Of a stretch of 64,000 nt of DNA, positions 26,991 through 64,000 are shown piece after piece (the first letter of the stretch is position 1; each line of letters begins with the position of its first letter). The stretch covers positions 28,599-92,598 of the forward strand of contig JAWLGR010000017.1 in NCBI GenBank assembly GCA_041684965.1. Reading direction: 5' to 3'. The DNA is from Mariniphaga sp. Its GTDB lineage: Bacteria > Bacteroidota > Bacteroidia > Bacteroidales > Prolixibacteraceae. Below the pieces are notes generated by a model that saw only the letters and a program-made list of their open reading frames with translations, ran no database searches and was not told the origin of the DNA. Position numbers and translations under genes: made by a program.

Positions 26991-27004
26991 TAAAAATAAC
27001 AAAA

Positions 27005-33046: not shown

Positions 33047-33068
33047 GGTATACAAACTAACTAACATG

Positions 33069-36236: not shown

Positions 36237-36426
36237 GTTTTGTAAGCTTTTCCCTTTTGGTTTATTTATGGAACAGGATAATTGCTCCCGTTCCTGTAAT
36301 TCGGTTTTTATTCTGGTCCTGGTTATTCCACTCATAACAAAATCTTTGAAGCGGTTTAAAGAACAACAATCCGGAATGTATTTAGCATTCGTCATTCTGT
36401 ATATTTCCTTATTAACATCCATTAAT

Positions 36427-37971: not shown

Positions 37972-37986
37972 TTTGCTAATGGTTTA

Positions 37987-39540: not shown

Positions 39541-39541
39541 G

Positions 39542-41017: not shown

Positions 41018-41027
41018 ATTTTTTATT

Positions 41028-44000: not shown

Positions 44001-44276
44001 AATCTCCAGGGCATTGTAGCCAATTACACTCACTTTAACAGTATTGGCTGGGTTCGTCATCTGGAGCACAAAGTCACCGTTCACATTGGTGGTTGTACCA
44101 TTTATAACCCTTTCCTCGCTGTCGTATTCTACAATGTTGGCCCCAATAATTGTTGTCTTATCCATTCTATCAATGACCCTCCCCCTGATAATGGTTCTTT
44201 CCTGGCCAATTGCATAAAAATTACAGAATAATACAATAAGAAGTATGGTAATCTTTATTCTTTTCATCTCATTCAC
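41028..44276 (-). CDS. SusC/RagA family TonB-dependent receptor (pair 1)
   Basis: 1082 aa. Motifs: IIRGRVIDRMDKTTIIGANIV, VIRGLSSMGNSRPLIVIDGIP, and the terminal ...IYTFSLGIGF. Confidence 0.9.
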   Translation of the reverse strand: MNEMKRIKITILLIVLFCNFYAIGQERTIIRGRVIDRMDKTTIIGANIVEYDSEERVINGTTTNVNGDFVLQMTNPANTVKVSVIGYNALEIAVDPTKTIMVELQPSDVALGEVTVTAEARTTGSLTNIEDRDRASSSVKVDLMDMQDVGVISAADALQGKVSGLDIISASGDPGSGSQLVIRGLSSMGNSRPLIVIDGIPQFRISDSFDLSSADTEDISNLINIALQDIKSIEVLKDAASTAVYGSSGADGVLLIETQKGRMGQVRFDYQYKFNLNVQPPPIPMLNGDEYIMLQLEEWHNSRGIFVVPPEIAYDRDFIDFYNYSANTDWISEITRDAKTHDHYFSISGGGQKTRYFTSFGYIDEGGTTINTNSRRLSTRINLDYFLSQKLLFQIKFNFTNNSTLGNVTIGGRNIREMAYIKAPNMSIWEYDSRGNPTGEYFTPINSYQGYGGTFYNPVAVGTLGKDNRLVNQLENTFVLQYRINDWLTFRETVSFQYQGTKRNIFLPYNAIGVDWLDYNVNQARETNGLNQGFHTESQLTFGSPIRNQKHVLSGAVTWITDDAWSETMNLYGTKTPTVDIQDPAVNAQIDYLSSSSTQRRELSGLGNINYKFLDRYMLQTILRADAHSSFGSNNRWGLFKGVSVGWRFSDETFLEGLEFLGESKLRYSWGVSGRKPGDVYARFAIYETTGTGSYINNPAIAPTKPQLDNLRWETIVSDNFGLDMSLFKDRIYFQGDIYKKVTKDILFGHDWNVNLFYPIPYSSGFQGLQYLNGGEMTNTGWELMFDYKIVRTKDWFVSFNFNTSQNINVFNKLPDNFNTERSTSIGNGQYPQLVQEGEPIGSFFGFRYLGVWVQDEDAVARDRNGNVMRDSEGRPIPLRYSDTYTFKGGDPIYEDVNYDGVIDLNDVVYLGDSNPNFIGGFGTNMKYKRFDFSAAFHYRLGFDIVNNIAIQTEGMNNRNNQSKAVLNRWRVQGQDEKGMLPRAYMNHPANNLGSDRYVEKGDYIRLNSMKIGYELSKETCAKLGIRRATFALSGRKLYTFTRYTGQDPEVGQNASDPFWMGVDRARTPPPKIYTFSLGIGF

Positions 44277-44315
44277 AATCCTTGGTTTTTATTTAAATCG
44301 AATAGTTTTAAAAGT

Positions 44316-46622
44316 TTATCGTGTATTTAATTCCTGGAAATTTAATACATTATCGACTTCATGAATTACAGCGTTGTTGAAGGTATTCGGAAAAACCTCC
44401 GTTCCGGTCCCCTGCATGATTCCACACAGTAAATTAGACCGGGCAGATTCAACAGCTCTGGACTTAAGTGAATAATTCACATCTTTAAAGTAAATAACGT
44501 CAATTCCCGGTTCTATGAACACACTTGAATATACAGTTGAAAATGGGGTTGACTTTTCATCAATCCTGGCTGTCTGATAATAATCTGCTCTTGCATTTCC
44601 ATCTGTAAAAATCAGCTCTCCCTGCACAAAATGAAACAGCAGTACTTTTCTCAATTCATCTATGGGCAGTGCGTTTAATCCGGCACTGACAATGGCTTCC
44701 TGAGTAGGAACAAACACAGTATAAAATTCACTGTTTGAAATGAAACTGTATCGTGACTCCTTATCCAGGTCGTATCCGGCTTTTCTTAATAAAGCATGAA
44801 AAGCAGGGAACTGGGATGAGATTCTTGCATACAGGCTCGGACTGCCAAAGCTAAACCAGTCATTAATGTCGTAAGTTGTTCCATTGTCTGTTTCAGCCAA
44901 AATTCTTGGAGCATCCGTTGAAGGAACAGTACCATTATACCCAACTGTAGTATTGGATGTACCTGACATTTCGCCTGTTTCATTATTTACAATTATGTAA
45001 TTACCGGCAAGGTTGGCAATAAATTCTTTTCTTGCAAAACCTTTTGGGTTATCAACAGCGATGTGGTTTAGCAAAAGGGTACGAAGATCGTTTTTTGTTA
45101 AAAGCCGCTGTGTAAACTGTGCACTGTTTTCCTGTATTTCAAAAACTGAAAACCGGTTGCGTTCCTGGTCGTAAATCAATGATGAGTCGATCGAGGTATT
45201 CATATCCGATTCTACAAAGAACATATAATTTCTGTTCTGTCGTTTTAATAAAGGCAATAAATCAGAATTCTCAATCGCGTACATGACCTTTGCATATCCC
45301 TGTCTCAGGTAAACAGGCCCGGTTACACTGCTGAAAGCCCTTGGTACAATAGCACTGTTCAGTCCCACAAAAGTACTGTTGCTTCCAAATTCCTTATATA
45401 TTACATTAGAAGGATCAACCCGTACCAAATCATTTTCCCCGTTGTAAAATCCTTTTATCATATCGGTTACATACACCGGATTTATAGACATATGGGTATT
45501 GGCAATAATCCTTCTGATGTGCTGGGGTGCTCCCTGTAATGTTCCCCAGCCATTTGGTATTTTAATATAATCATCTATAAGCTTATTAAAGGCATCGTTT
45601 GTAGGTGCCAGTAATCCATGATGATACCGGATGGTAACATTTTGAGGAAGCCCGTAAGTTCCTGAAGGGGGTTGGGTTCTTTCTCCCTTAACATTAAATG
45701 TAAGCTGAGGAAAAGTCAAATCAAACAGTGAATCAACCTGTATTCCCTGTTGTGCTCCTTCCTGTGCAAATGTCCTGGATTGGTTGTAGGTAAATCTTGG
45801 AAAGTTGTTTATAAGGTCCAGAAACTGGGAATAAGAATGTTCACCTGCAGGTTGTTCCAAAATTTCATAGGCATTCCTGAATGGTTCCACTACCTGATCG
45901 ATCCTGTAGATAAAACCGTTTTCAGCAAAAATCTCCTCCCCTACAATAACGGCATTCCCAAAATGGATATCCCGTCCTCCACTGAATGGCCGGTCAAAAT
46001 AAAACTCATAGTCAGAACCGTGCAATTCATATATATCAAAATATTCCTTGAAAAAAACAGGCACGTATTTTCTTGAGTCGGTAATAACCCTCCTGTGAAG
46101 ATTGGTATTTAAAGTATCCGTTATACGGGTACCTATTCCATAAGCATAATTCCAGCCGAATTTTCTATCCGGTTCCCTAAGCAAAGTTTCCCGTTTAAAA
46201 CCTCTGGGTTTGTCATTGGTAACATCCAGAGTATCAATCCAGCCAAATACATCGAGCGATCTAAGCTGAGCTTTGGTCCATGGATTTTGTACAATATGAT
46301 ATTTAACCAAATCTGTTAAAACAGAGATTGGTACACTTTCTATAGATGTGTAATTTGGATTTTTTGCAAGCCATTCGTTCATTGCCTGATTGGTAGGGGC
46401 AAATATGGTATAACTCCCTGAAACATCTATAATTTTATCATATTCCGTTATTTCAATGCACTTGGCAAAAATAGAAAGTTCCTCTACATCCTGGATTTGG
46501 GTGTATAATTTACCTGCCAACCAATCAGGTCTCTCATACTTATCATCGTCATCACGACAACCTGAAATCACCAGGACTGTTCCGAGGAAGATTGCTATTA
46601 TTAGTTTTAACCGATACATCAT
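44316..46622 (-). CDS. multi-FAS1 (fasciclin) domain lipoprotein, first gene of the SusC/D locus
   Basis: The start is at MMYRLKLIIAIFLGTVLVISGC. There are at least three FAS1 signatures: YTIFAPTNQAMNEWL with VKYHIV, LLAPTNDAFNKL, and YTVFVPTQEAIVSAG with LLFHFV. Confidence 0.75.
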   Translation of the reverse strand: MMYRLKLIIAIFLGTVLVISGCRDDDDKYERPDWLAGKLYTQIQDVEELSIFAKCIEITEYDKIIDVSGSYTIFAPTNQAMNEWLAKNPNYTSIESVPISVLTDLVKYHIVQNPWTKAQLRSLDVFGWIDTLDVTNDKPRGFKRETLLREPDRKFGWNYAYGIGTRITDTLNTNLHRRVITDSRKYVPVFFKEYFDIYELHGSDYEFYFDRPFSGGRDIHFGNAVIVGEEIFAENGFIYRIDQVVEPFRNAYEILEQPAGEHSYSQFLDLINNFPRFTYNQSRTFAQEGAQQGIQVDSLFDLTFPQLTFNVKGERTQPPSGTYGLPQNVTIRYHHGLLAPTNDAFNKLIDDYIKIPNGWGTLQGAPQHIRRIIANTHMSINPVYVTDMIKGFYNGENDLVRVDPSNVIYKEFGSNSTFVGLNSAIVPRAFSSVTGPVYLRQGYAKVMYAIENSDLLPLLKRQNRNYMFFVESDMNTSIDSSLIYDQERNRFSVFEIQENSAQFTQRLLTKNDLRTLLLNHIAVDNPKGFARKEFIANLAGNYIIVNNETGEMSGTSNTTVGYNGTVPSTDAPRILAETDNGTTYDINDWFSFGSPSLYARISSQFPAFHALLRKAGYDLDKESRYSFISNSEFYTVFVPTQEAIVSAGLNALPIDELRKVLLFHFVQGELIFTDGNARADYYQTARIDEKSTPFSTVYSSVFIEPGIDVIYFKDVNYSLKSRAVESARSNLLCGIMQGTGTEVFPNTFNNAVIHEVDNVLNFQELNTR

Positions 46623-46709
46623 AATGGTAAAATTTTTGATTTCCAAATAATAGGTTTTTCAAATCTTTTAAATATTTTATATAAGTATATTTAATTAATT
46701 TTCCTTGCG

Positions 46710-51330: not shown

Positions 51331-52953
51331 ATGAAACATCTGTTGATTTTAATTATTGTCCTCTCTTTCCCGGCTTTAATAACTGCGCAGCCACCTGCAA
51401 AATTCAGTTATCAGAAAGTAATCCGGAACAGCAATAATGAGCTTGTTTTGAATACCAGAATCGGACTAAAAATAGATATACTTCAGGGTTCGGAAAGCGG
51501 AAATTCAGTCTATTCGGAAGTTCATACCACTACGACCAATAAGAACGGATTGGCAACCATTACTATTGGTTCAGAGCCAGGTGAAAGCTTAATGATTGAG
51601 AACATTGATTGGACTATCGGCCCATACTATATTAAAACAGAAATAGACCCTGCAGGAGGTACGGAATACACCATTTCAGAAACAACTCAAATTCTTAGCC
51701 TGCCTTTTGCATTGCATGCAAAGTCTGCAGAAAGATTAACCGGTCCGCTTCCTGAAACAGATCCTGTATATAAAACATCGGCAGCAGCTGAAATAAAAAA
51801 AGCAGATACCACCTTCTGGAATCAGAAACAAAGTGTTGTAACAGTCGGCAAAGGATTAAAATTATCAGGAAATGTAATTAGCATCGATGATAAATATTTT
51901 AAAGGTGACACTACCAAAGCTGTTGACCAGTTGGGAGAAGGAATTGCTGCCCGGTTTCCCGGGGATGAAGGAATAGAAAACCATGCAGCGGTTGTTTTTA
52001 CAGAGAACTTTGAAGCCGGAACACTTGCAGCTGTTCTTAATAACTGGACATGGAGCCGGGGTGCAGATGACCATCGGCTCTCACTTGACACAATTCCCGG
52101 ACCGGAAGGTTCAACGGGGAATAAAAGCCTTAAAATGACGATAAAAAACGGAGTTGGAGGCGATGGTAGCGATTTGCGAAAAATACTGGATGAAGGTCAT
52201 GAACAACTTTTCTTTCGATTTTATGTAAAGTTTGCTGAAGATTACGGATACAATCACCATTTTAACAGCCTTTCGGGTCAGATTGACCCAACCCCCTGGC
52301 CGGTAGGAAGCGCAGGTCAAAAACCAACCGACCGATTCAGCAGTACCATTGATCAGCTAACCAGGAATATCAATTTAACAGGACCTGATCATACACCTCC
52401 GGGTTATTGGATGATGTATTCCTACTGGCCGGAAATGCGGTCCTGGCAAACTGTTGAAGGAGAACCCGATGGCCGTCCGAATCCTTATTACGGAAACAAT
52501 TTTATGCCTTACAATCCGGTTCCGGCAAAACGGGGTGAATGGCAATGCATTGAGATAATGATACGTCTGAATTCCGCACCCGATAAAGCCGATGGTGCCC
52601 ATGCCTTTTGGATCGACGGAGTACTTGCCGGTCATTGGGACCCAAAGGAAGCAAACCCCGTTGAAGGTTACTGGATAAGGGAAAACTTCCGGCACAATCC
52701 AACTCATGCAAGCGCTCAACCATTCGAAGGCATGAAATGGCGTACACTGGAAGATCCTGAACAATTTGAGAAATTAAAAATAAACATTATCCGGCTCCAG
52801 AATTATGTATCCTCAACCTCATGGGAAAGTGCCCAAAATTATTTAAACAATAATCCGGGATTTAATATCAATATGGAGGAAGCTACAGTCTGGAAAGACC
52901 ATGTTGTTGTTGCTACTGAATACATCGGACCTATGGTACCTAAAGAAGAATAA
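51331..52953 (+). CDS. stalk module + jelly-roll (concanavalin-like, candidate polysaccharide lyase) domain protein, divergent member
   Basis: The ATG at 51331 (MKHLLILIIVLSFPALITAQ) is preferred over the TTG at 51304. The N-terminal ~170 aa are homologous to those of 4718-7492 and 53456-54943. The C-terminal domain has LFFRFYVKF, PDGRPNPYYGNNF, GEWQCIEIMIRLN and AFWIDGVLAGHW. Confidence 0.55.
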   Translation: MKHLLILIIVLSFPALITAQPPAKFSYQKVIRNSNNELVLNTRIGLKIDILQGSESGNSVYSEVHTTTTNKNGLATITIGSEPGESLMIENIDWTIGPYYIKTEIDPAGGTEYTISETTQILSLPFALHAKSAERLTGPLPETDPVYKTSAAAEIKKADTTFWNQKQSVVTVGKGLKLSGNVISIDDKYFKGDTTKAVDQLGEGIAARFPGDEGIENHAAVVFTENFEAGTLAAVLNNWTWSRGADDHRLSLDTIPGPEGSTGNKSLKMTIKNGVGGDGSDLRKILDEGHEQLFFRFYVKFAEDYGYNHHFNSLSGQIDPTPWPVGSAGQKPTDRFSSTIDQLTRNINLTGPDHTPPGYWMMYSYWPEMRSWQTVEGEPDGRPNPYYGNNFMPYNPVPAKRGEWQCIEIMIRLNSAPDKADGAHAFWIDGVLAGHWDPKEANPVEGYWIRENFRHNPTHASAQPFEGMKWRTLEDPEQFEKLKINIIRLQNYVSSTSWESAQNYLNNNPGFNINMEEATVWKDHVVVATEYIGPMVPKEE

Positions 52954-52969
52954 TTAAAATAATAATATT

Positions 52970-53452
52970 ATGAATTTAAAACTCATTTTAAATACGGCGC
53001 TGTTCGTATTCTTTTTAACCACTGCGAATGCACAGGTTGGTTTCTCAAGTTTTGGGGGAGATGCCTCCGGAACAGGTGGCTCAATCAGCTTTACAGCAGG
53101 ACAAGTGGTATATACTGCCCATACAGGTGTTTCTGGTTCAATCACCCAGGGTGTTCAGCAACCCTATGAAATTTCATTGATTGCAGGGATAGAAACTCCC
53201 TATGATATTAATCTTACGTTGTCAGTTTATCCAAATCCGGTAACTGATTTCCTTTACCTTAATGTCATGAATTTCAGCTCTCAAAAACTGAATTACCATC
53301 TATACGATATAAATGGCAGCACCATCGAAATGAAAAGAATTGTTTCGGATATTACAAATATAAACATGAGAAATTTTACCCCGGCTTCTTATTTTTTAAA
53401 AGTAATGGATGGTAATGAAATTATAAAAACTTATAAAATTATTAAAAACTAA
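52970..53452 (+). CDS. small secreted protein with a T9SS C-terminal sorting domain
   Basis: 160 aa with a signal peptide. It has a Gly/Ser-rich segment ending in GVQQPYEI, then LSVYPNPVTDFLYLNV...ASYFLKVMDGNEIIKTYKIIKN. Confidence 0.6.
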   Translation: MNLKLILNTALFVFFLTTANAQVGFSSFGGDASGTGGSISFTAGQVVYTAHTGVSGSITQGVQQPYEISLIAGIETPYDINLTLSVYPNPVTDFLYLNVMNFSSQKLNYHLYDINGSTIEMKRIVSDITNINMRNFTPASYFLKVMDGNEIIKTYKIIKN

Positions 53453-53455
53453 AAA

Positions 53456-54943
53456 ATGAAAAAGCTTATACTTATTGCTTTTATACACTTTATTATTTTA
53501 AACCTGACAGCCCAGGTACCTGAAAAGATGAGTTACCAGGCAGTTATTCGAAACACCGACGAACATCTGGTTGCCAATACCACCATTGGCATGCAGGTAA
53601 GTGTATTAAAGGGGTCGGAAGCCGGAGAAGTGGTTTATTCTGAAATACATACACCTAAGACCAACGCCAACGGCCTGATAAGCATTGAAATCGGTGCCGG
53701 AAGTAAATCGTGGTGGCGACCTAATTTCAAAGATATTAACTGGTCTGATGGCATTTATTTTATTAAAACAGAAATCGATCTTTATGGTGGTAGCAACTAT
53801 ACCATTACCGGAACCAGCCAGGTTTTAAGTGTTCCGTATGCCCTTCATGCAAAAACAGCTGAAACCATATCAGGTACAATCACTGAAACAGACCCGGTGT
53901 TCGGTGCTTCGGTAGCTGCAGGAATAACGAATGCCGATACTTCAAGATGGAACAACAAACAAAATAAACTTATTGCGGGTAAAGGTATTATCATTGAAGG
54001 GGATATCATCAGCATCAACCCCAATTACTTTAATGATTCCATTGAGGGAGTTGCAAAAAACTATGTGAACGACAAAAACATTGAATACGATCAGGATGTA
54101 ATTTTTGCGTCAGGGTTTGAAAACGGTTTCGCGGGATGGAGCTCCTACAATAACAATGTGAGTAAGATTATCAACCATTCCGATTCAGCTTTTTCAGGCA
54201 GCAAGGTGCTAAAAACTACTGCTACCAGATATGTAAACACAGGAGGAGACGTTACATTTAAGTTTCCGCAAGGCCAGGATCAGATATACCTGCGCTTTTA
54301 CACCAAACTGGATGAGAACACGATTATTCCCCACCATTTTGTTAAAATACAGGCTATGAGGGATGGTTTCTGGGGAAGTGCAGGGCAGGCGCCTCCTGGT
54401 GATAAGGGATATTGGACGGGAATTGAACCCCGGAGCGACCACACATGGAATTTTTACACATACTGGCACGAAATGCACAGCTGGCAAAGCTGGTCGGGTG
54501 TACCCGATGGCCGGCCGAACCCTTATTACGGAAATGTGTTTCACATGCCCGGACAAACACCTTTGGTAAAAGGTGAATGGGTTTGTGTTGAAGCAATGTT
54601 TAAAGCAAATACTCCGGGACAATACGACGGTGAACAGGCATTCTGGATCAATGGAGAAAAAATAGGCCATTGGAGAACCGGCGAACCCCTGGGGGAATGG
54701 AGGGGTGACAAGTTTACATACAACTACGGCACCAATCCGCAACCATTTGAAGGATACAACTTCAGGACCGTAGATGATTTAAAAATCAACAGTATTATCC
54801 TGCGCTGGTATGTAAGCGAGGAACACATGCAAAGTAAAAAGGCAACACACATCAACAACAGCGTATTTTTTGATAATATTGTGATTTCAACAAAATACAT
54901 TGGTCCCATGTACGACGAGAACGGACCGGTGCTGGGAAAATAA
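53456..54943 (+). CDS. stalk module + jelly-roll (candidate polysaccharide lyase) domain protein
   Basis: 495 aa. The N-terminus is very similar to the 924-aa protein (GSKSWWRPNFKDINWS, VLSVPYALHAKTAET, DPVFGASVAAGITNAD..WNNKQ). The C-terminal ~290 aa are close to 62316-63296 (IYLRFYTKLDENTIIPHHFVKI, PDGRPNPYYGNVF, EQAFWINGEKIGHW). Confidence 0.55.
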   Translation: MKKLILIAFIHFIILNLTAQVPEKMSYQAVIRNTDEHLVANTTIGMQVSVLKGSEAGEVVYSEIHTPKTNANGLISIEIGAGSKSWWRPNFKDINWSDGIYFIKTEIDLYGGSNYTITGTSQVLSVPYALHAKTAETISGTITETDPVFGASVAAGITNADTSRWNNKQNKLIAGKGIIIEGDIISINPNYFNDSIEGVAKNYVNDKNIEYDQDVIFASGFENGFAGWSSYNNNVSKIINHSDSAFSGSKVLKTTATRYVNTGGDVTFKFPQGQDQIYLRFYTKLDENTIIPHHFVKIQAMRDGFWGSAGQAPPGDKGYWTGIEPRSDHTWNFYTYWHEMHSWQSWSGVPDGRPNPYYGNVFHMPGQTPLVKGEWVCVEAMFKANTPGQYDGEQAFWINGEKIGHWRTGEPLGEWRGDKFTYNYGTNPQPFEGYNFRTVDDLKINSIILRWYVSEEHMQSKKATHINNSVFFDNIVISTKYIGPMYDENGPVLGK

Positions 54944-55019
54944 TGCAGGATCAGGCAGAGGTTTTATGGTTGTTTGACAGGGTTGATATCGTTGATTAAA
55001 CGGGTGAATAATATTGGCT

Positions 55020-56000
55020 ATGATACAATTAATACACCATACTGTTTATAGAAAATATCTGATCCTGTTTGCAGGTTTGATTCTGTTTATGGCAGCCTGT
55101 AACGTGAGAAATGTTGATTCACTGGAGCCAAAAGAGATGGAGTCCTTTGCAACTGCAACGGTTGAGGGAGGAAACCTGAGGGCTGTGTTTGCCGATAACC
55201 AGGCTTTTGCTCCCGACCACCGGGCAGGGTATAACGGAATAGCTGAATTGTACCATACCGCACAGGATTCAACTTTATTTGTGCCTGCGTTTGCCGGGTT
55301 CAACCTCGAACACATCTTCAGTGGCGACAGTCTTGAAGAGTTTTTTGAACCGCGAGTACATCCAATGTCCCTGTACAAAAAAAATGACTTCGAAGTGCTG
55401 CTTTACCAGAAAACAACTCCGGTATCCGGGGTAGAAAGCATCACTGAATTTAAGCTGGTGCCTCCTCATTACATCGATGTTACTTTCCGGTGCGTGCTGC
55501 ATGATGATAGTTACTTCCGGCACAACTATGCAGGCTTCTTTTGGGCAAGCTATATTCATCAGCCATCCGATAAAAAAATTTATTTTAAAGGTGTCCGTGA
55601 AGGTCAGACAAAAGAAGAATGGGTTTCTGCCTTTTCTGAGGAACACGGCTACAAAAGCACTCATAGAGACATAAACGACGATTTAAACCTGTATTTTATT
55701 CCCGGCTTCAGAGCACGCCTGGCCAGCAATTTCTCAGATTACCGGTTTTCTGAACCAATTTACTATGGCCGCTTTCATAATATGGCCCTGGCGTTTTTCT
55801 TCGATTCCGATGAAATTATACGATTTACCCAGTCTCCCACAGGAGGCGGCAAGCTCAATCCGGCATGGGATTTCCAGTATATCATCTCCCACCCTGTAAC
55901 CGGCAAAGAATACAGCTTTAAGGCAAGATTGGTTTATAAACCGTTTCAAAGTAATGCGGATATTGTAAAGGAGTATGAACAGTGGAAAAAGGAGAAGTAA
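55020..56000 (+). CDS. hypothetical lipoprotein
   Basis: The ATG at 55020 gives MIQLIHHTVYRKYLILFAGLILFMAACNV (lipobox). The ORF is long and clean with no family I can name. It is co-directional with the jelly-roll genes. Confidence 0.5.
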   Translation: MIQLIHHTVYRKYLILFAGLILFMAACNVRNVDSLEPKEMESFATATVEGGNLRAVFADNQAFAPDHRAGYNGIAELYHTAQDSTLFVPAFAGFNLEHIFSGDSLEEFFEPRVHPMSLYKKNDFEVLLYQKTTPVSGVESITEFKLVPPHYIDVTFRCVLHDDSYFRHNYAGFFWASYIHQPSDKKIYFKGVREGQTKEEWVSAFSEEHGYKSTHRDINDDLNLYFIPGFRARLASNFSDYRFSEPIYYGRFHNMALAFFFDSDEIIRFTQSPTGGGKLNPAWDFQYIISHPVTGKEYSFKARLVYKPFQSNADIVKEYEQWKKEK

Positions 56001-56467
56001 AATAAATCGATTCATCTCACAAATTAATCTTCCGGCTTTTTCTCTGCTCACCCCCGGGCACCAGCATTGCTGTTTTACTTCAGCCAATGGATTACAGATC
56101 ACAAAACTGCTGAGAGGCTTAAACCTCATACAACCGGACACCAATAAGAGCAGAAAATTTAATTGGTGGGATTTTGGGAATTTGTGATTTGGTGGTAAAA
56201 AGAATAAGAAAGCGATACCCCCATACAATAAAAAAGAATATAAAAAAGTGGCTGCAGCCAATTAAAACTACTGCTTGCAAAACCTGCAATTCTCTTTCAA
56301 AAAATAAATCAACGACCACGTAATATCCAGGCTTCCGAAAATCGCAATACCCTAAAATACATAAATCTAACACCCAGGCCTGATGCCTTCAATCGAATCT
56401 ATTCCAAATAACATCAGACTTAAATAAAGGAGATTGTTTGCATCGTTTTTATTCGATATATCTTCGT

Positions 56468-56548
56468 ATTAAATTCGATACAAATTCGCTATAAATTCGC
56501 GATTTTGCGAATTTGTTGCGAATTTAATCCGAATTTAATCCGAATTTA
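56468..56548. repeat. palindromic array of 11-bp phased repeats, copy 2 (3 direct + 4 inverted)
   Basis: Sequence: attaaattcg atacaaattcg ctataaattcg cgattttg cgaatttgttg cgaatttaatc cgaatttaatc cgaatttaca. It has the same orientation and the same upstream ggagat...tatatcttc flank as copy 1. It sits in a convergent intergenic region. Confidence 0.85.
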
Positions 56549-56779
56549 CAATGGGATATCTATAACTATGAGCTACTGATTAACTTCCTGAAAAATTTTA
56601 ATCTGCCCCTTACCTGATTGATAACTTGTATAAAAATAAGGCTGTCTTGAACAATAAGGTTATCTAAGCAGGGCATACTAAACATAAAAAAATATTTTTA
56701 TCTGCAGATCGTAAGGGTTGCACTTATTCCGGGGAAAATTATTCGTTATCTGAAAACGGCAAAGGATGATTTCGTGCAA

Positions 56780-58834
56780 TCACCGTTCCAATACAATCAC
56801 TTTATAAACCCTGAGGTTTGGAACTTTCAAAGTAACCCTTCCATTTTCTTCAATAAAGGAAACAGGCGACTTTTCTTCCTCGTCGGGTGAGATGCACCAG
56901 GCATTCTTAATATTGCCTTTGTACTGAAGCTGAATGCCGGCCACATTCTTCTCTGTGTTGTAATTAAACAAGTGAATGACTTCCCTGTTGGATTGGGTAT
57001 CGTGCGAGACACCCACCCATTCGGGAGCTTTCACTTCAAGCGGAAGCTTATCTCCGGCTGTAAAATGAACCGCTGATGCAAGCTCATTTGCATTATCAGG
57101 CATATGCCAGATGGATTCGAATCCAAGCTTCACTTCACCCCCGGGATGTATCAGTTCCGGGATGTAAACCACTTTTCCCTTTTTGTAGTTAAAGGATAAA
57201 GATTGACCGGAAGTTAAATCAATCCCCTCACCTGCTCCGGCAGCTAATTCCTCCAAAAAGCTTTGCTTTCGGAGCCGTCGCCAGCCATCGTACCTTCCGG
57301 TGCTTCCTGATAACACCAGTCCGCCTCCGCCTGCCGTAAATGTTTTAATTGCTTCGATATTTTCGTCTGTCAGGCTTTCCTGATTGGCAAGCACCAATAC
57401 AGCATAATCCGCTAATTTATCAATCTGCTGGTCGAATACAATATCAAAAGGAATTTGTCTCTGCTGAAGAGCCTGCTCTGCCATATTAACTGCCACCTGT
57501 GTCTCCAGCGTATTATAAGCCATTGAAGGATAACTCCGGAGGACAGCCACCTTTTCTGCTCCACGGGCATTTGTATACAAATCTTTATTTGCTGTCCAAA
57601 AATCAAGATAGTGTTTTCCTGCACCCGAAGGCACACCTCTTCCCAGTGATCCTATCGTCCGGTTCAGTGCCAGATTTTCAGCAAAATCGTTGGGAGAATG
57701 ATTGCCTGTCATGATAAAGTTATTTGTGGTGCGCCCCAGTTTGTAATGACGGAATTTTCCTATTGCCACGCCATTCTCCCAGCGGGGATTGTTCCTGTCT
57801 TCGGTCCAGATAACATTGGTGTACTGCATCAGGTCGGGGTGGTTGATGCCTGCTTCCCAGGCTCTGTTACTGCCCACCAGGCCGTGCGGGTTTACCTCAA
57901 TTACCACTTCCCTGTTCAGTTTACGGGCAAACCGGGCACATTCGGCAAGTCGATCGGTGAATGTATGGCAACGGAAGTCAATCCATTCCTGGATGACGGG
58001 ATCGTTTATGGCAATCATTTTATCAGCCGGATTCGGTTCGTTCCACATCGGTGGCAGGACATGAGACACATTTTCAAAACCAAACCGTTCAATCCGTTGT
58101 TCAGGAGAATATTTTTCCGTGATGTGGTTCCTGAAAGCATCAATGGTTACCGGATTAAAATCGGCTTCAGGTGGATAATTGTAATCGAAATTATCGAAAT
58201 GAATGAAATCCGTTTTTACCTTCTCCACCGCATACCGTATGATTTTTTCCTTAAAATACTCCATATACCCGTCGTGGTTGAAGCAAGGCCTGTAGCGGAA
58301 CGACTGCTGATACCCATAGGTCAGCATGATTGGTTTGCCGCTGACATCGATCTGGTACCACATATCCGTTTTCGCCTCAGGTACCTCCGTAAAGAAGGTT
58401 TCATAGGCCATCGTGTTCCACTGGATGTAGGTATCCACTTTCATCCCATATTTATGCGCCAGGGCGGCAGCTTCTGCCACCTGATCCATATATTCTTTTT
58501 CAGCTTCGAAGCCAAAACCTTTGTAAAAACCTACGTGGTAAACGGTAACTCCTGCTTCGGCCAGCTGTTTAATGAACTCTTCCGACAGCTGGTATTCAAA
58601 TTCTTCTTTCTGCCACTGGTTAAACCGGGGATTGTTTCGACGCACCTGAAATATCCAGGGTTCATGAGTTGCTCCGGCATCGGCAAATCCATTTCGAATC
58701 CATTCAGGAGTGTACCGGGCTAAATCTTCACTCTCCTGTGCAAAAACAGGACTATTAATATCAACTAAAAGGCAAAAAAAACCAATTGAAAGAATAAGCC
58801 TAAAGGAATTCTGCACTTTATCCTTTGTATACAT
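56780..58834 (-). CDS. secreted TIM-barrel glycosidase-like protein with a GH42-like architecture (barrel + Rossmann-like trimerisation-type domain)
   Basis: 684 aa with a signal peptide. Motifs: LAEAGVTVYHVGFYKGFGFEAEKEYMDQVAEAAALAHKYGMKVDTYIQWN and ADYAVLVLANQESLTDENIEAIKTFTAGGGGLVLSG. The family is not verified. Confidence 0.4.
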   Translation of the reverse strand: MYTKDKVQNSFRLILSIGFFCLLVDINSPVFAQESEDLARYTPEWIRNGFADAGATHEPWIFQVRRNNPRFNQWQKEEFEYQLSEEFIKQLAEAGVTVYHVGFYKGFGFEAEKEYMDQVAEAAALAHKYGMKVDTYIQWNTMAYETFFTEVPEAKTDMWYQIDVSGKPIMLTYGYQQSFRYRPCFNHDGYMEYFKEKIIRYAVEKVKTDFIHFDNFDYNYPPEADFNPVTIDAFRNHITEKYSPEQRIERFGFENVSHVLPPMWNEPNPADKMIAINDPVIQEWIDFRCHTFTDRLAECARFARKLNREVVIEVNPHGLVGSNRAWEAGINHPDLMQYTNVIWTEDRNNPRWENGVAIGKFRHYKLGRTTNNFIMTGNHSPNDFAENLALNRTIGSLGRGVPSGAGKHYLDFWTANKDLYTNARGAEKVAVLRSYPSMAYNTLETQVAVNMAEQALQQRQIPFDIVFDQQIDKLADYAVLVLANQESLTDENIEAIKTFTAGGGGLVLSGSTGRYDGWRRLRKQSFLEELAAGAGEGIDLTSGQSLSFNYKKGKVVYIPELIHPGGEVKLGFESIWHMPDNANELASAVHFTAGDKLPLEVKAPEWVGVSHDTQSNREVIHLFNYNTEKNVAGIQLQYKGNIKNAWCISPDEEEKSPVSFIEENGRVTLKVPNLRVYKVIVLER

Positions 58835-58930
58835 GCTTTTATTTTTTTAATTTCTTATTTTTGGTCATTACAGTTTGCTATGCAAGATAATAAAAAAGCG
58901 TGGCAGGCAATAATTCAAACCAATTGTAAC

Positions 58931-61099
58931 ATGATTAAAAGATTTTATACAGCCAAACTTATTGTGGCTCTTCTGCTTACGGCCCTGTATATTCTGCCGG
59001 CTGTCGCTCAATCGAAGGATTCATCTAACGGAGTTATACCGGTCTCAGAGCCGGGAAGTTACGACCAGCCAGGTGCAGTTTACAGACTAACCAAAGACAT
59101 TGTAAGTGAAAAAAGCGCTGTTTTTTTAGGGAAAGACATTACGCTTGATCTGAATGGGTATACCATTACTTATGCAGGAGGAAATTATGAGCATTTACCC
59201 AATGCAGGTTTTGAGGAAGGACTGAAAGGATGGGACGTTTCAAATGCGCCCGGGGCCAAAGTCGTTAATACAGCCGAAGTTCATTCGTTTATCGGGGAAA
59301 AAATCCTTAGTCTTCAGCCGGGCGATGTGATCCGTTCCCCATACATCAATTTACCGGTTGAAGGACGTTCTTATTTTGCCATGTGCGGCCTGACCGGAAG
59401 GTATTATCATGATATGAAGGGAGATTTGAACAACGACATGAAAATTAGCATCTATGTGGAAGATGAAAACGGGAACGAAGTAGAATGCATCAATCCGTAT
59501 GGAGATACAACGATGGTAGGTACTCCGGTACTGAAGCGTTCCACCCGTTTGGGAGGCGGATTTATATTTGCTCATTTGAAAGATATTCCGGCAGGCAAAT
59601 ACCGGGTAAAAGTAAAGGCGGATACCGATTGCCTGGTAGATGAAATAGACATCCGCCCGGCTATGGATGTGGGTATTGGAATTGTGGAGAAAACCCACCC
59701 CTACAGTCATTACAGTCATTTGCACGAAGGAGTACACGGTGCATTTTACGATTACACCGAAGATTTCAGCACCGGGAAACCTGTCCCTGGAATACCCATA
59801 GCTGAAGGAAGAGGAACCGTTACCATAAAAAACGGGACCATAAGAAGTGGTACGCCCGGAATAGTATCATGGGGAATACAGTCCACAGCGAATGATGTCA
59901 GGGTTATTCTCGACAACGTAAAAATTGAAACCGAAGGCATCAATGCTACCGCAGTGGATGTACCCCATGCCACCATTACCAACTGTAAATTTTATGTAGA
60001 CAATCCCTTTATCATCAACCGTCACGGTTCTTCCTTTTATGCGGTCGACCTGCGCGGCACAACGGCTTCGGAAGTATCCTACAGCGAATTTTACGGAGGC
60101 CAGGGGAACCTTGTTGTTAAGGGTATAAACTCCATTGTTCATCACAATTATTTTGTGAATGAGCAATACGTTACAAACCATTACAGCATTATGGCCATGG
60201 GTGACGGAACGATGATCTTTGAAAATAAGTTTGAACCCATAATCGGTTCAGGACTGGAGATTTTCAGGCACAAAAACATCGATATTTTTAACAACGAATT
60301 TCATATAAAGGCATCTCCTCCCTCGTGCGAATACCATGAACAATACAGCACCAATGCCATCCGGATAGCCGATTACGGTGCGGAATGGGGGTCCCCGCGC
60401 GGAGCATACGGAAACCGTATTTACAACAACAAATTCTATATTACAGGGAAAAAGTTTAAGGAGTATCCCAACTACATTCCTTCAGCAAATGCTTTTTTCT
60501 TCAGTACCAGCGCAGGAGATAATTACATCTTCGGGAATGAAATTGTGCTTGACCAGCAAGACCCTGATACCGATGCACAGGCGTATGCATTTTATATCGG
60601 AAACGCATACGGCGGAAAGATATACAATAACCGGATTGTTTCAAACGTAACCCCAATGTGGGTTGCAAGCGCTTATGGCACAGCATCCGAAACGGAGTTG
60701 TACAACAACACATTTATCAAGGCAGAAAACACTGCCACTGAATTTGTTCCTGTAAGAATGGGCCGTCAGAAAGCTGAGAACATTAAATTCCGCTCAAATG
60801 AATTTGAGGGGATGGATTTTAAAATCGATGCCTCCGGTTCAAATCACAGCTATACCGTTGCATGGACGTTGAATATTAATACCAGTGCGGGAACCCAAAT
60901 CCGGATTACAGACAAGACCGGCAATGAAGTAGTGAATGTCACTGCCGGGGAAACAGGACAGGTTAGTATTGAGTTGCCCGAATATTCAGTTGACGGAGCG
61001 GAAAAAACTAACTATTCTCCCTATACTGTGGTTACCGGTAAAAAGAAGAAACAAGTTTTAGACTTGAAGAAAAACACTACTATAAACATAATAAATTAA
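58931..61099 (+). CDS. secreted right-handed beta-helix protein, paralog of the catalytic part of 4718-7492 (no stalk module)
   Basis: The start is at MIKRFYTAKLIVALLLTALYILPAVAQS. It shares AVYRLTKDI..ITLDLNGYTITY with AVYIVTEDI..ITLDLGGHTITH. It also shares the C-terminal domain (YTVAWTLNINTSAGTQIRITDKTGNEV versus YRVKWTLTVNTAEEAVVTISDKAGNEV). Confidence 0.6.
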   Translation: MIKRFYTAKLIVALLLTALYILPAVAQSKDSSNGVIPVSEPGSYDQPGAVYRLTKDIVSEKSAVFLGKDITLDLNGYTITYAGGNYEHLPNAGFEEGLKGWDVSNAPGAKVVNTAEVHSFIGEKILSLQPGDVIRSPYINLPVEGRSYFAMCGLTGRYYHDMKGDLNNDMKISIYVEDENGNEVECINPYGDTTMVGTPVLKRSTRLGGGFIFAHLKDIPAGKYRVKVKADTDCLVDEIDIRPAMDVGIGIVEKTHPYSHYSHLHEGVHGAFYDYTEDFSTGKPVPGIPIAEGRGTVTIKNGTIRSGTPGIVSWGIQSTANDVRVILDNVKIETEGINATAVDVPHATITNCKFYVDNPFIINRHGSSFYAVDLRGTTASEVSYSEFYGGQGNLVVKGINSIVHHNYFVNEQYVTNHYSIMAMGDGTMIFENKFEPIIGSGLEIFRHKNIDIFNNEFHIKASPPSCEYHEQYSTNAIRIADYGAEWGSPRGAYGNRIYNNKFYITGKKFKEYPNYIPSANAFFFSTSAGDNYIFGNEIVLDQQDPDTDAQAYAFYIGNAYGGKIYNNRIVSNVTPMWVASAYGTASETELYNNTFIKAENTATEFVPVRMGRQKAENIKFRSNEFEGMDFKIDASGSNHSYTVAWTLNINTSAGTQIRITDKTGNEVVNVTAGETGQVSIELPEYSVDGAEKTNYSPYTVVTGKKKKQVLDLKKNTTINIIN

Positions 61100-61130
61100 A
61101 AATAAAATTATTAAACAAAATTATTTAACC

Positions 61131-61943
61131 ATGATTAAGACAGTAATTATAGCAGTATTAACATTTTTTGTTTTTACATATTGCACCGGACAGAAAAAGG
61201 GAAATATTCTGTTCACAGAATCTTTCGAAGATGAAAACCTGAATTCCAGGGAGTGGTACGATGGCTCAGTCGCCCGGATTTCAAAAGATGCATACAAGGG
61301 AAAAGGAAGTATTGAATACGAGTGGGTGAAGGGGGTACAAAAAGTACAGGGGTCCAATGGTTTCAGGCGCCTGTTTGAGCCCTCTGAAGAAATCTACCTC
61401 CGTTATTACCTTAAACTGTCGAAAGGCTGGCAATGGACAGGTGTAAACTACCATCCCCATCTGACTCATTTTTTGACTACCGAAAATTCAGCATATCACG
61501 GCCCCGCAGCGAGTCACCTCACCCTGTACATCGAACCGGTGAACGGCAAGCTGCGGCTGGCTGCCACGGATATCCAGAATAAAGATATGCCCCACGGACT
61601 GACACAGGGAGAACTGAGAGGCGGCTTTAACGGAAAATTGTACGATAGCAAAGAAATTCTCTTTGATGACGATGAATGGCATTGCATAGAGGCTTACTTT
61701 AAGCTTAACACACTTGACATGACAAATGACAAGCCAAATAAGGATGGTATTATCAGAGGCTGGTTCGACGGCAAAGAGGTAATTAACCTAACCGATGTTG
61801 TTTTAAGATCAACCGATTTTCCTGATATGAAATTTAATCAGTTCCTGATAACACCTTATTTCGGGCCCGGTCTGCTGGACAACAACCAGAAGCTCTGGAT
61901 TGACGAGATGGTGGTGGGAACAAGTCGGGCAGGATGTGAGTAG
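61131..61943 (+). CDS. small jelly-roll (concanavalin-like, candidate polysaccharide lyase) protein, distant member of the family
   Basis: 270 aa. Motifs: ILFTESFEDENLNSREWYDG, IYLRYYLKLSKGW, EWHCIEAYFKLNT, IIRGWFDGKEV and KLWIDEMVVGT. The motif order matches that of the 62316 family. Confidence 0.45.
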   Translation: MIKTVIIAVLTFFVFTYCTGQKKGNILFTESFEDENLNSREWYDGSVARISKDAYKGKGSIEYEWVKGVQKVQGSNGFRRLFEPSEEIYLRYYLKLSKGWQWTGVNYHPHLTHFLTTENSAYHGPAASHLTLYIEPVNGKLRLAATDIQNKDMPHGLTQGELRGGFNGKLYDSKEILFDDDEWHCIEAYFKLNTLDMTNDKPNKDGIIRGWFDGKEVINLTDVVLRSTDFPDMKFNQFLITPYFGPGLLDNNQKLWIDEMVVGTSRAGCE

Positions 61944-61952
61944 ATGAAGAGG

Positions 61953-62064
61953 GTTCCATTGTTCCATTGTTTCATTGTTCCATTGTTCCATTGTTTCATT
62001 GTTCCATTGTTTCATTGTTTCATTGTTTCATTGTTTTATTGTTTTATTGTTTTATTGTTTGGTG
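61953..62064. repeat. 8-bp tandem repeat array (13 units and one degenerate unit)
   Basis: Units of GTTCCATT x5, GTTTCATT x5 and GTTTTATT x3 run in the order CC,CC,TC,CC,CC,TC,CC,TC,TC,TC,TT,TT,TT, followed by GTTTGGTG. The array starts 9 nt after the stop of 61131-61943. Confidence 0.9.
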
Positions 62065-62315
62065 TTTTTAGTGTTTTGGTGGTAAAAAAGAATGGGGGCT
62101 GGAAGACGGAAGACCAAAGCAAGAAGGATTTGAATGTTTCAATGTTTGAGGGTTTTAGTGTCTAGGGAAGTTTGGTGTTTTTAGTGTTTTAGTGGTAAAA
62201 TAAACAATTGTTTGAATTTGAATGGGTAAGCATTTCATTGGTATTAGTCTTGATACTTGATACTCTTAGTCTTGTTACTCGATATCGAAATAAACAATTA
62301 AAAATTAATTAATAA

Positions 62316-63296
62316 ATGAAAACTGCTATTTTAATTTTAACGCTTGCATTTCTTTTTGCTGGCGCAACAGCTCAAGGCAATGCTTCAGGAAAGAATCAGG
62401 AAGGAATTGCAAAGAATTATTTGCATGACAAGAACATACAGTCCAATCCTGCCGTAATTTTTGCTTCGGGATTTGAAAATGGTTTTGAAGGCTGGACTGC
62501 CTACAATGAAAAGATCAGCGAAATTATTACCGATCCCAAAGCTGCATTTTCAGGTAGCAAGGTATTAAAATCAACTGCTACCCGTGGTGTCAATACCGGC
62601 GGAGATGTGGATTATAAAATTGTTCCCGGACAGGACCAGATATACGTGCGGTTTTACACCAAATTAGATGAAAACACCGTTATTCCACACCATTTTGTAA
62701 AAATACGTGCCATAAAGGAAGGATTCTGGCCCAATGCAGGACAAAAACCTCCCGGCGATAAAGCTTTCTGGACAGGTATTGAACCACTTCCTGACCATAC
62801 CTGGAATTTATATACCTACTGGCACGATATGCACAGCTGGCAAAGCAGGGAAGGCAAACCCGACGGTCGGCCAAACCCATATTTCGGCAATGTATTCCGG
62901 GTGCCGGGACAGGAACCGTTGAAAAAAGGAGAATGGATTTGTGTGGAAGCTATGATGAAGGCCAATACGCCCGGTCAGAATGATGGGGAGCAGGCATTCT
63001 GGATAAACGGGGTAAAAATTGGTCACTGGAAAAAAGGAGAGCCAATGGGTGAATGGAGAAACGATCGGTTTGTTATCGGTGGGGATAACCCAAAGCCTTT
63101 TGAAGGATATAACTGGAGAACAGCTGAAGATGTAAAAATCAATATGATAAAATTACAATGGTACATCAGCAAGGAACACATGGAACGTAAAAAAGCCACA
63201 CAGGATGACAACAGCGTTTTTTTTGACAATGTTGTGGTGGCAACCGAATACATTGGCCTGATGTATGACGAAAAGGGTGCTGTTGTTAAAAGGTGA
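62316..63296 (+). CDS. secreted jelly-roll (candidate polysaccharide lyase) domain protein, stalk-less form
   Basis: 326 aa with a signal peptide. Motifs: VIFASGFENGFEGWTAY, IYVRFYTKLDENTVIPHHFVKI, PDGRPNPYFGNVF, GEWICVEAMMKANTPGQNDGEQAFWINGVKIGHW and VFFDNVVVATEYIG. Confidence 0.55.
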   Translation: MKTAILILTLAFLFAGATAQGNASGKNQEGIAKNYLHDKNIQSNPAVIFASGFENGFEGWTAYNEKISEIITDPKAAFSGSKVLKSTATRGVNTGGDVDYKIVPGQDQIYVRFYTKLDENTVIPHHFVKIRAIKEGFWPNAGQKPPGDKAFWTGIEPLPDHTWNLYTYWHDMHSWQSREGKPDGRPNPYFGNVFRVPGQEPLKKGEWICVEAMMKANTPGQNDGEQAFWINGVKIGHWKKGEPMGEWRNDRFVIGGDNPKPFEGYNWRTAEDVKINMIKLQWYISKEHMERKKATQDDNSVFFDNVVVATEYIGLMYDEKGAVVKR

Positions 63297-63322
63297 AGAG
63301 TTTGAATTTGTCTGACATTTGT

Positions 63323-63384
63323 AGTTTGAAAAGTTCGAATAGTTTGAAGAGTTCGAAAGAGTTCGAAGAGTTTAAAAGTTTGAC
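63323..63384. repeat. 9-10-bp tandem repeat array (about 6.5 units of AGTTYGAAR)
   Basis: Sequence: agtttgaaa agttcgaat agtttgaag agttcgaaag agttcgaag agtttaaaa gtttgac. It starts ~26 nt after the stop of 62316-63296, the same relative position as the 8-bp array one unit upstream. Confidence 0.85.
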
Positions 63385-63696
63385 CCCTTTAGCGTTCGGA
63401 GGTTTGAATGTTTCAATGTTTGAGGGTTTCAGTGTTTAGGGAGGTTTGGTGTTTTTAGTGTTTTGGTGGTAAAAAAGAATGAGGGCTGGAAGACGGAAGA
63501 CCAAAGCAAGAAGGATTTGAATGTTTCAATGTTTGAGGGTTTTAGTGTCTAGGGAAGTTTGGTATTTTTAGTGTTTTAGTGGTAAATATACAAACGTTTG
63601 AATTGGGTATGCATTTCATTGGTCTTAGTCTTGATACTTGATACTCTTAGTCTTGATACTCGATATCGAAATAAACTATTAAAAATTAATTTATAA

Positions 63697-64000
63697 ATGA
63701 AAACTGCTATTTTAATTTTAACGCTTGCATTTATTTATGCTGGCGCAACAGCTCAAGGCAATCCTTCAGGAAAGAATCAGGAAGGTATTGCAAAGAAATA
63801 TTTGCACGACAAGAACATTCAATCCAATCCTGCCGTAATTTTTGCTTCGGGGTTTGAAAACGATTTTGAAGGCTGGTCGTATCATAACAGCAAGATAAGC
63901 CAAATCATCAATCATCCCGATTCCGCCTTTTCAGGAAACAAGGTTCTAAAATCAACAGCAACGCGCGGTGTCAATACAGGTGGCGATGTGGATTATAAAA
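63697..64000 (+). CDS. secreted jelly-roll domain protein, tandem duplicate of 62316-63296 (5' part only)
   Basis: MKTAILILTLAFIYAGATAQGNPSGKNQEGIAKKYLHDKNIQSNPAVIFASGFENDFEGW.... There are 15 differences from the upstream copy in the 101 alignable residues. Confidence 0.6.
   Translation, partial: MKTAILILTLAFIYAGATAQGNPSGKNQEGIAKKYLHDKNIQSNPAVIFASGFENDFEGWSYHNSKISQIINHPDSAFSGNKVLKSTATRGVNTGGDVDYK

Follow-up and report, generated by a model that had tools for sequence, protein, structure and literature searches.

The window analysed here is a 64-kb stretch (64,000 nucleotides) of contig JAWLGR010000017.1 from Mariniphaga sp. (assembly GCA_041684965.1), and its last 13 kb hold a cluster of genes for proteins sharing a predicted beta-jelly-roll domain of ~290 amino acids (aa). 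An initial annotation, made from the DNA alone, had described these genes as an expansion of an uncharacterised lyase-like family. All five jelly-roll open reading frames (ORFs) were found where it had placed them and are intact within the window. The cluster has the following layout, in which T9SS denotes the type IX secretion system.

51331..52953, plus strand: stalked copy A, 540 aa from the ATG at 51331, in an ORF open from TTG 51304
52970..53452, plus strand: T9SS-tailed partner, 160 aa (Pfam Por_Secre_tail, E 4e-11, above threshold)
53456..54943, plus strand: stalked copy B, 495 aa
55014..56000, plus strand: uncharacterised ORF, 328 aa, with no match above threshold
56780..58834, minus strand: uncharacterised protein, 684 aa, with a weak match to a GH42 trimerisation domain, below threshold
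58880..61099, plus strand: uncharacterised protein, 739 aa, with NxF-type repeats typical of beta-helix proteins and nothing above threshold
61131..61943, plus strand: distant relative, 270 aa, linked to the main family by HHalign and belonging to a separate family
62056..62315, plus strand: duplicated upstream region of ~260 bp, with a near-exact repeat at ~63443–63696, ahead of the fifth gene
62316..63296, plus strand: stalk-less copy, 326 aa, with a signal peptide followed by the jelly-roll (residues ~30–320); the protein modelled below
63697..64000, plus strand: second stalk-less copy (fifth gene), first 101 codons, cut by the end of the window

The two stalked copies are built alike. Copy A consists of a signal peptide, an N-terminal beta-sandwich module (the "stalk"), a linker and the jelly-roll (~nt 51919–52947), and its start is most plausibly the ATG at 51331 rather than the TTG at 51304, because a normal signal peptide, as read from the sequence, then results. 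In copy B, the signal peptide is followed by the beta-sandwich (residues ~24–123), a low-confidence linker (128–200) and the jelly-roll (residues ~194–489, ~nt 54035–54922).

All 64 kb were translated in six frames and searched with a profile of 66 family members, which matched the 326-aa protein (E 8e-149), copy B (E 2e-137), copy A (E 3e-94), the truncated fifth gene (E 5e-30) and, more distantly, the 270-aa ORF (E 1e-11). The search revealed no further copies, and the window thus holds exactly four copies of the ~290-aa domain and one distant relative. The 101 aa of the fifth gene are 85% identical to the 326-aa protein, the 495-aa copy is 67–70% identical to it and the 540-aa copy 39% (BLASTP E 2e-58). 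The 270-aa protein is only 20% identical (BLASTP E 3e-4), but its family was joined to the main family by HHalign (probability 99%, E 4e-18). The arrangement proposed initially, four domain-bearing genes and a shorter distant relative, is therefore confirmed, since the profile search, the paralogue identities and HHalign agree. The conserved blocks that had been listed are all visible in the paralogue alignment, and the multigene expansion is real, both in the window and as tandem arrays elsewhere. The sequence PDGRPNPY(Y/F)GN, which had been put forward as the signature of the family, did not hold: the exact string is present in 18 of 263 family proteins. PDGRPNPY was rejected as a family-defining motif, as it is clade-specific and found mostly in the closest relatives of the window proteins; within the longer string, only Y190, G191 and N192 are conserved family-wide. 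It is vanishingly improbable that the similarity is an artefact of chance resemblance, low complexity or pseudogenes, a reading that we consider already refuted: the paralogue E-values range from 1e-30 to 1e-149, every ORF is intact, the homologues number hundreds and are spread over phyla, and the structure model is confident.

The 326-aa protein was modelled with AlphaFold2 (AF2) from a 66-sequence alignment, and the model consists of an all-beta domain after the signal-peptide helix, with a mean predicted local distance difference test score (pLDDT) of 94.7 and a predicted TM-score (pTM) of 0.89. According to this model the ~290-aa domain is a beta-jelly-roll, which bears out the earlier prediction of this fold. 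The likeness to concanavalin-like lyases that accompanied it was also upheld, as the nearest folds identified by Foldseek in the PDB belong to the polysaccharide lyase (PL) families PL36, PL20 and PL14. PL36 Aly36B (6KCV/6KCW/6KZK) gave the top three matches and the best E-values (6e-12 to 1e-11; target-normalised TM-score, TMt, 0.62–0.63; 13–14% identity), with no match at the sequence level. These were followed by the PL20 glucuronan lyase 2ZZJ (E 3e-11, 18% identity), the PL14 enzyme AkAly30 of Aplysia (5GMT, E 2e-10), the CAZy X122 domains (TtX122A/B, 8Q29/8Q2A, E 1e-9), PL14 vAL-1 (3GNE/3A0N, E 6e-9 to 9e-9, TMt 0.71–0.73, root-mean-square deviation 4.4–4.5 over ~285 columns) and Cip1 from Hypocrea jecorina (3ZYP, E 1e-7). 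Calreticulin and legume lectins ranked lower (E ~1e-6 to 1e-5), and domains resembling carbohydrate-binding modules (CBMs) also appeared in ranks 16–50. Sequence identity to these matches was 13–19%.

None of these relatives is a close counterpart of the window family. PL14 has the same jelly-roll and the best TMt values (0.66–0.73, at 12–17% identity), but the window domain is ~45 residues longer, the extra loops corresponding to the AGQxPPGD and PDGRPNPY regions, and no alginate or glucuronan context is evident. The catalytic and substrate-binding residues in the cleft of vAL-1 are Lys197, Ser219, Arg221, Tyr233 and Tyr235, and the catalytic pair of PL36 is Lys143/Tyr185. PL20 is a fold match and is mainly fungal, whereas the window family is bacterial. 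Cip1 and X122 are likewise orphans among the lyase-like jelly-rolls, and in them too the concave face bears a conserved patch. PL36 has been reported to cross-match PL14 at the sequence level (PMC11890756).

At the sequence level, scans of the cluster proteins with Pfam, NCBIfam and PHROG gave no model above threshold for the jelly-roll domain, in line with its original description as an uncharacterised family. Two window copies scored 13.0 and 14.4 bits against PF21294 (PL14; gathering score 27 bits), and the 495-aa copy was not matched by it. PF14099 (Polysacc_lyase; gathering score 29.9 bits), the heparinase I/glucuronan lyase model, matched none of the four main copies. A Pfam scan of 96 family representatives at ≤50% identity, with a weak-match cut-off of E ≤ 0.01, yielded PF21294 for 41 representatives (best E 2.9e-8), PF14099 for 10 and the Cip1-like PF21340 for two, and no other fold family was recurrent among the weak matches. 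PF14099, the model named in the initial annotation, therefore does recur in the family, together with PF21294. A distant multidomain member, P0316, passed both PF21294 (83 bits, above threshold) and the profile of the window family (E 1e-66), and the family is thus linked to the Pfam PL14 model through intermediate sequences. When searched against the PDB as a potential bridge to vAL-1, P0316 returned only Ig-domain matches and a marginal 2zzj, and the 326-aa protein as a single sequence returned only noise.

The family profile matched a single PDB protein, Cip1 (hmmsearch E 3.4e-4), in an alignment limited to residues 52–126 and 298–320. Only the N- and C-terminal thirds align, and the central cleft strands (YTYWHxM) have no aligned counterpart. 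In this alignment, the invariant E54 and D304 fall on Glu7 and Asp206, which are listed as Ca2+ ligands of Cip1 (PMC3764139), and H126 falls on the cleft residue His83. A Ca2+ "grip" motif at the N- and C-terminus is common to PL20 (TrGL) and Cip1 (PMC3764139), and this structural site appears, from the aligned residues, to be kept in the window family. Because of the weak matches to lyase models, the P0316 intermediate and the Cip1 alignment, sequence comparison places the family within the Ca2+-stabilised lyase-like jelly-roll superfamily, outside the families defined in it.

The family is large. A word-indexed search returned 347 clusters at 90% identity, with every returned source name being "hypothetical protein", and an exhaustive profile search yielded 3,611 clusters at 50% identity (E ≤ 1e-3), including 1,439 at E ≤ 1e-10 and 419 at E ≤ 1e-30. 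In a collection of species-representative genomes (one genome per species), relatives are encoded by at least 541 matching stretches, the main phyla being Planctomycetota, Bacteroidota, Verrucomicrobiota and Myxococcota. Among the matches listed, the closest relative (82% identity) was from a metagenome-assembled genome (MAG) of Prolixibacteraceae, followed by sequences from Mariniphaga, Roseivirgaceae, many Planctomycetota, Verrucomicrobiota, Lentisphaerae, Gemmatimonadales, Balneolaceae and Sorangium; the gene is also present in cultured bacteria such as Roseiconus, Stieleria and Novipirellula. Tandem copies also occur elsewhere, with eight and seven in two Pirellulales loci, five in a second Prolixibacteraceae MAG locus and three in several others. 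Synteny with the window was seen in the Prolixibacteraceae MAG, where counterparts of the 684-aa, 739-aa (~722 aa in the MAG) and 270-aa genes are followed by several copies. The gene order around the stalked copies is also preserved there: a 1,331-aa T9SS protein comes first, then a stalked copy of 540 aa, a 161-aa gene and a second stalked copy of 497 aa. This synteny makes a Prolixibacteraceae-like bacterium of the Bacteroidota the most likely source of the window.

No family member was found to have been named or characterised, and a literature search on recently reported jelly-roll PL families, on PL41–PL46 and on Cip1-like or X122 proteins found no paper matching the window family. In late 2024, CAZy comprised 44 PL families, of which PL7, PL14, PL18 and PL36 are the alginate-active jelly-rolls, and PL41 and PL44 are beta-helix families (PMC11890756); PL20, as seen from the Foldseek match, is also a jelly-roll. 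A 2026 paper on polysaccharide utilisation loci for glycosaminoglycans covers only PL8, PL35 and PL38. The fold and the logic of the superfamily are thus known, the family itself is unstudied and lies outside the Pfam, NCBIfam and PHROG models, and we have little doubt that it constitutes a real, large and uncurated family of the lyase-like jelly-roll superfamily.

Sixteen columns were invariant in 66 sequences sharing 31–83% identity: E54, R112, Y168, W169, M172, G191, N192, W207, E211, N217, G245, F262, R268, D304, V307 and G314. The columns conserved in at least 90% of these sequences include Y114, H125, H126, Y166, Y190, D223 and W229, and most conserved columns persist in the 96 more distant representatives. 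In the model, according to the DSSP string, Y166 and Y168 lie on one strand and H170 and M172 continue the alternation into the next loop, so that all four residues may point to one face. Jelly-roll lyases (PL7, PL14, PL20 and PL36) use sets of the Arg/Tyr/Tyr/His/Glu/Asn type for charge neutralisation and acid/base catalysis, and the conserved Arg/Tyr/Tyr/His/Glu/Asn set of the window family bears a resemblance to these active sites. The conserved concave-face patch comprises His83, Arg100, Glu194 and Tyr196 in Cip1 and His100, Arg118, Met131 and His213 in X122, this His/His/Met/Arg patch being conserved in the X122 domains of extracellular redox proteins (PMC10916295). The invariant M172 and the near-invariant H125, H126 and H170 of the window family parallel the X122 patch.

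The two stalked copies form part of a recurrent cassette. The AF2 model of the 495-aa protein (pLDDT 88.2) has a confident stalk beta-sandwich. The ~70 N-terminal residues of the two stalked copies matched the NCBIfam model Bdello_MAT_N (NF053851) with 43.6 and 28.1 bits (E 2.6e-11 and 1.5e-6, the latter for copy A), below the cutoff of 60, and the stalk was also weakly similar to a tail-fibre PHROG (E 5e-4). The stalk sequence alone had 2,441 homologues, and every one with a source name was from Bacteroidota; among the matches listed, they were 147–302 aa long and a few had other C-terminal domains, such as Lcl_C. A tblastn search of phages with the stalked protein gave no match, and a fold search against viral models returned proteins of Paramecium bursaria Chlorella virus and of assorted phages, some of them tail-associated and most unnamed. 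The mosaic adhesive trimer (MAT) fibres of Bdellovibrio follow a similar logic, with a constant N-terminal module and variable C-terminal tips (PMC10769870). The Bacteroidota stalk module has a small T9SS-tailed partner in every locus examined.

The 160-aa partner in the window combines a conserved Gly/Ser-rich N-terminal segment of ~55 aa with a T9SS C-terminal sorting domain. A gene for a T9SS-tailed protein of 161–162 aa was found directly upstream of the stalk gene in all five other Bacteroidota loci examined, the two genes overlapping by a few bases or lying up to 67 nt apart. The six cassettes, the last five designated by locus, have the following coordinates.

Window: 52970–54943
L084: 4507–5708
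L085: 4507–5879
L086: 5513–7494
L087: 3519–4714
L088: 3448–4714

The six partner proteins are 39–51% identical and have in common the segment GGDASGSGGSVSYSVGQVVYT...QGVQQPYEI, and a Mariniphaga locus has a 190-aa T9SS-tailed ORF upstream of its family member. The stalked proteins carry a plain signal peptide, which reads as having no lipobox Cys, and the Pfam scan found no Por_Secre_tail on any of the five jelly-roll proteins of the window. In the wider family, three of the 96 distant representatives have a T9SS tail of their own, and a lipobox-like N-terminus occurs in ~20% of the members. Most simply, the small partner may take the stalked protein to the surface or anchor it there. The cassette is a possible piggy-back or anchoring route through the T9SS.

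The cluster is preceded by a gene for a 1,328-aa T9SS protein and is divergent from an operon encoding two SusC/SusD pairs together with three proteins with fasciclin domains, which may be the surface glycan-binding proteins of the locus. The other features of the window are as follows (no strand is assigned to the first two).

2287–4707: PL8 gene, 47 kb from the cluster and beyond the IS21-type element
25554–27739: IS21-type element, with a rve/Mu-transposase-like gene and an IstB ATPase gene
31190–46646, minus strand: two SusC/SusD pairs interleaved with three fasciclin (FAS1) proteins of 514–776 aa

The IS21 element separates the left part of the window, including the PL8 gene and genes of the GH42/DUF4832 type, from the SusC/D and jelly-roll cluster. 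The PL8 gene reported initially is therefore real, but does not flank the cluster, and the beta-helix (58880–61099) and TIM-barrel (56780–58834) candidates that had been named as further flanking genes have no library match above threshold. A PDB sequence search with the 739-aa, 684-aa and 328-aa proteins returned no relatives.

In related loci, the neighbours of the family include AXE1-like and SGNH esterases bracketing arrays, members of glycoside hydrolase (GH) families GH5 and GH20, beta-helix proteins and a sulfatase. In a Pirellulales MAG (L081, contig CAZIKS010000065.1, 2063–17288), seven consecutive paralogues of 294–744 aa lie between genes for an AXE1/S9-like and a GDSL/SGNH esterase, and in a second planctomycete locus (L082) a GDSL esterase lies directly upstream of a single copy; these esterases hint at an esterified (acetylated?) polymer as substrate. 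Members of the family are also fused to a dockerin, a CBM96-like region, Ig-like repeats (in many members), Laminin_G_3, BNR sialidase-like, Sde182-type and CN-hydrolase domains and a second jelly-roll of the PL14 type. The fusions to a dockerin and to a CBM suggest a role for the domain as the functional cargo. A protein of 680–885 aa with no Pfam match adjoins the arrays in four loci (L058, 14100–16256; L043; L019; L023) and is the most specific recurrent neighbour seen; it is present in Bacteroidota and Planctomycetota and is uncharacterised.

The upstream regions of the two stalk-less copies are ~97% identical, versus ~87% in the coding part (alignment read by eye), and identity falls at about codon 60, which suggests either that gene conversion has homogenised the promoter, leader and signal peptide or that the mature domain has diversified. 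A promoter and 5' leader common to both genes probably lie in the duplicated ~260-bp region. Just 5' of this region is an array of 8-bp tandem repeats (GTTTCATT x13.5, 61953–62060), the fifth gene is preceded by different short repeats (63322–63437), and an Rfam scan of the whole window identified no family.

The 270-aa protein belongs to a family with at least 1,380 homologues in the word-indexed search, many of them 65–87% identical, which is more matches than were obtained for the main family; every source name returned was again "hypothetical protein". This family is unusually conserved, with 82 invariant columns in 33 sequences. The 270-aa protein may be a lipoprotein, to judge from Cys18, and it matched PF21294 (21.3 bits, E 2e-4) and PF14099 (15.6 bits, E 0.015) below threshold, the latter model being reached by only some members of its family. 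The profile of this second family had no match in the PDB. This group of proteins may merit separate study.

The reading that we favour for the main family is that of an exported lyase-like jelly-roll acting as a glycan-active enzyme, which, as a whole, we consider to have an even chance of being correct. That the domain cleaves glycans is, judging from the fold, similarly balanced; that it does so specifically by lyase chemistry is a more tentative proposal, somewhat on the doubtful side. The gene products are exported, on the basis of signal peptides recognised by eye, and the most plausible activity would be that of a lyase working by beta-elimination and independent of metal. On the concave sheet, a cleft lined by the invariant or near-invariant residues R112, Y114, H125/H126, Y166, Y168, H170, E211, K215 and N217 would bind a polysaccharide chain, with a Tyr/His pair serving as base and acid and Arg/Asn neutralising the carboxylate. 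The tandem copies (four here, and seven or eight in some Pirellulales loci) could be specificity variants for the linkages or decorations of one complex polymer. The two stalked copies, given that their stalk belongs to a Bacteroidota cassette with a T9SS-tailed partner, would probably be displayed on the cell surface, and the stalk-less copies, apparently with a plain signal peptide only, may be periplasmic or released.

Several observations weigh against this reading. Activity is known for no family member. The stalk resembles adhesin or fibre scaffolds, the tips of which usually bind. Tests of Cip1 and X122, the nearest relatives by sequence, gave no convincing sign of lyase, hydrolase or binding activity (PMC3764139, PMC10916295), so this resemblance transfers no function, and the position of Cip1 Arg100 and X122 Arg118 falls in the unaligned region of the profile match. 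In the genomic context, no neighbour was conserved across phyla and no partner family was present in more than six of 80 loci (crude ORF call and all-against-all BLAST). In a Pfam census covering 55 loci and their 118 immediate neighbours, enrichment was only weak (Gfo/Idh/MocA, seven; GDSL esterases, four; GNAT, four). Lyase systems for uronates often include enzymes of the GH88, GH105 or Kdu type. These were absent from the 25 commonest families of the census and from the window ORFs scanned (at least 150 aa upstream and at least 100 aa in the cluster), and the acidic glycan suggested initially as the substrate finds no support. With no conserved partner and a weak census, the context names no substrate; it points to carbohydrate, perhaps to an esterified polymer, and not to uronate.

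As the main alternative, the domain could bind glycans without catalysis, in the manner of a lectin, of an adhesin tip or of a surface glycan-binding protein, its conserved concave face holding a polysaccharide or a glycan of the cell surface that it does not cleave. The stalked copies would then be adhesins resembling fibres, and those without a stalk would be binding proteins, either soluble or periplasmic. This explanation is possible, but we regard it as unlikely. The fold is common to calreticulin, legume lectins and CBM-like domains, but the lyases outranked the lectins by four to six orders of magnitude in Foldseek E-value. The likeness of the stalk to the Bdellovibrio MAT N-terminus and a phage tail-fibre PHROG, its association elsewhere with other small C-terminal domains such as Lcl_C, the absence of detectable activity for Cip1 and X122 (PMC3764139, PMC10916295) and the lack of uronate-processing neighbours in the census would all fit a binding role. 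However, the invariant Arg/Tyr/His/Glu/Asn set is not a simple aromatic platform, and its conservation down to ~30% identity is more typical of active sites. The fusions point both ways, as many members carry Ig-like repeats or Laminin_G_3, whereas those with a dockerin or a CBM96-like region imply a functional cargo, which CBMs usually serve; the tandem arrays bracketed by esterases look degradative.

A different chemistry, in the form of a hydrolase for neutral glycans or a helper protein similar to Cip1 or X122, possibly metal-dependent, appears improbable. Cip1 is the only sequence match in the PDB, the parallel of M172, H125, H126 and H170 with the patch of the X122 redox proteins (PMC10916295) points in this direction, E211 and D223, invariant or nearly so, could be hydrolase-type carboxylates, and the neighbours lean, if anything, to Gfo/Idh/MocA oxidoreductases and esterases rather than to uronate enzymes. 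However, the crystals of Cip1 and X122 show no metal except structural Ca2+ (PMC3764139, PMC10916295), true lyases head the structural matches, and no jelly-roll glycoside hydrolase was close to the top of the Foldseek ranking, in which GH131 was found at rank 45 (E 1e-5).

To return to the glycan-active enzyme, the cluster provides a testable lead for enzyme discovery with an unexpected export cassette, without being a surprise in kind. It is conceivable, although we think it doubtful, that these genes are the founding set of a new family of carbohydrate-active enzymes (PL or other glycan-cleaving) for a polymer without a known depolymerase, together with an undescribed Bacteroidota display cassette, in which the T9SS-tailed protein of ~160 aa would carry or anchor a fibre protein that has no tail of its own and bears an exchangeable tip. 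Should the domain be non-catalytic, the lyase-like jelly-rolls would have three large orphan branches, with this one beside Cip1 and X122, and the question of their role would be sharpened. The cassette, if confirmed, would bear on how Bacteroidota export proteins that have no sorting domain. Were the domain catalytic, the known glycan-degrading enzymes would gain a family of thousands of proteins, and the arrays of four to eight paralogues would provide a natural system for the study of specificity diversification. The family is concentrated in the phyla that dominate the degradation of complex marine and soil polysaccharides, in which many loci have no identified backbone-cleaving enzyme.

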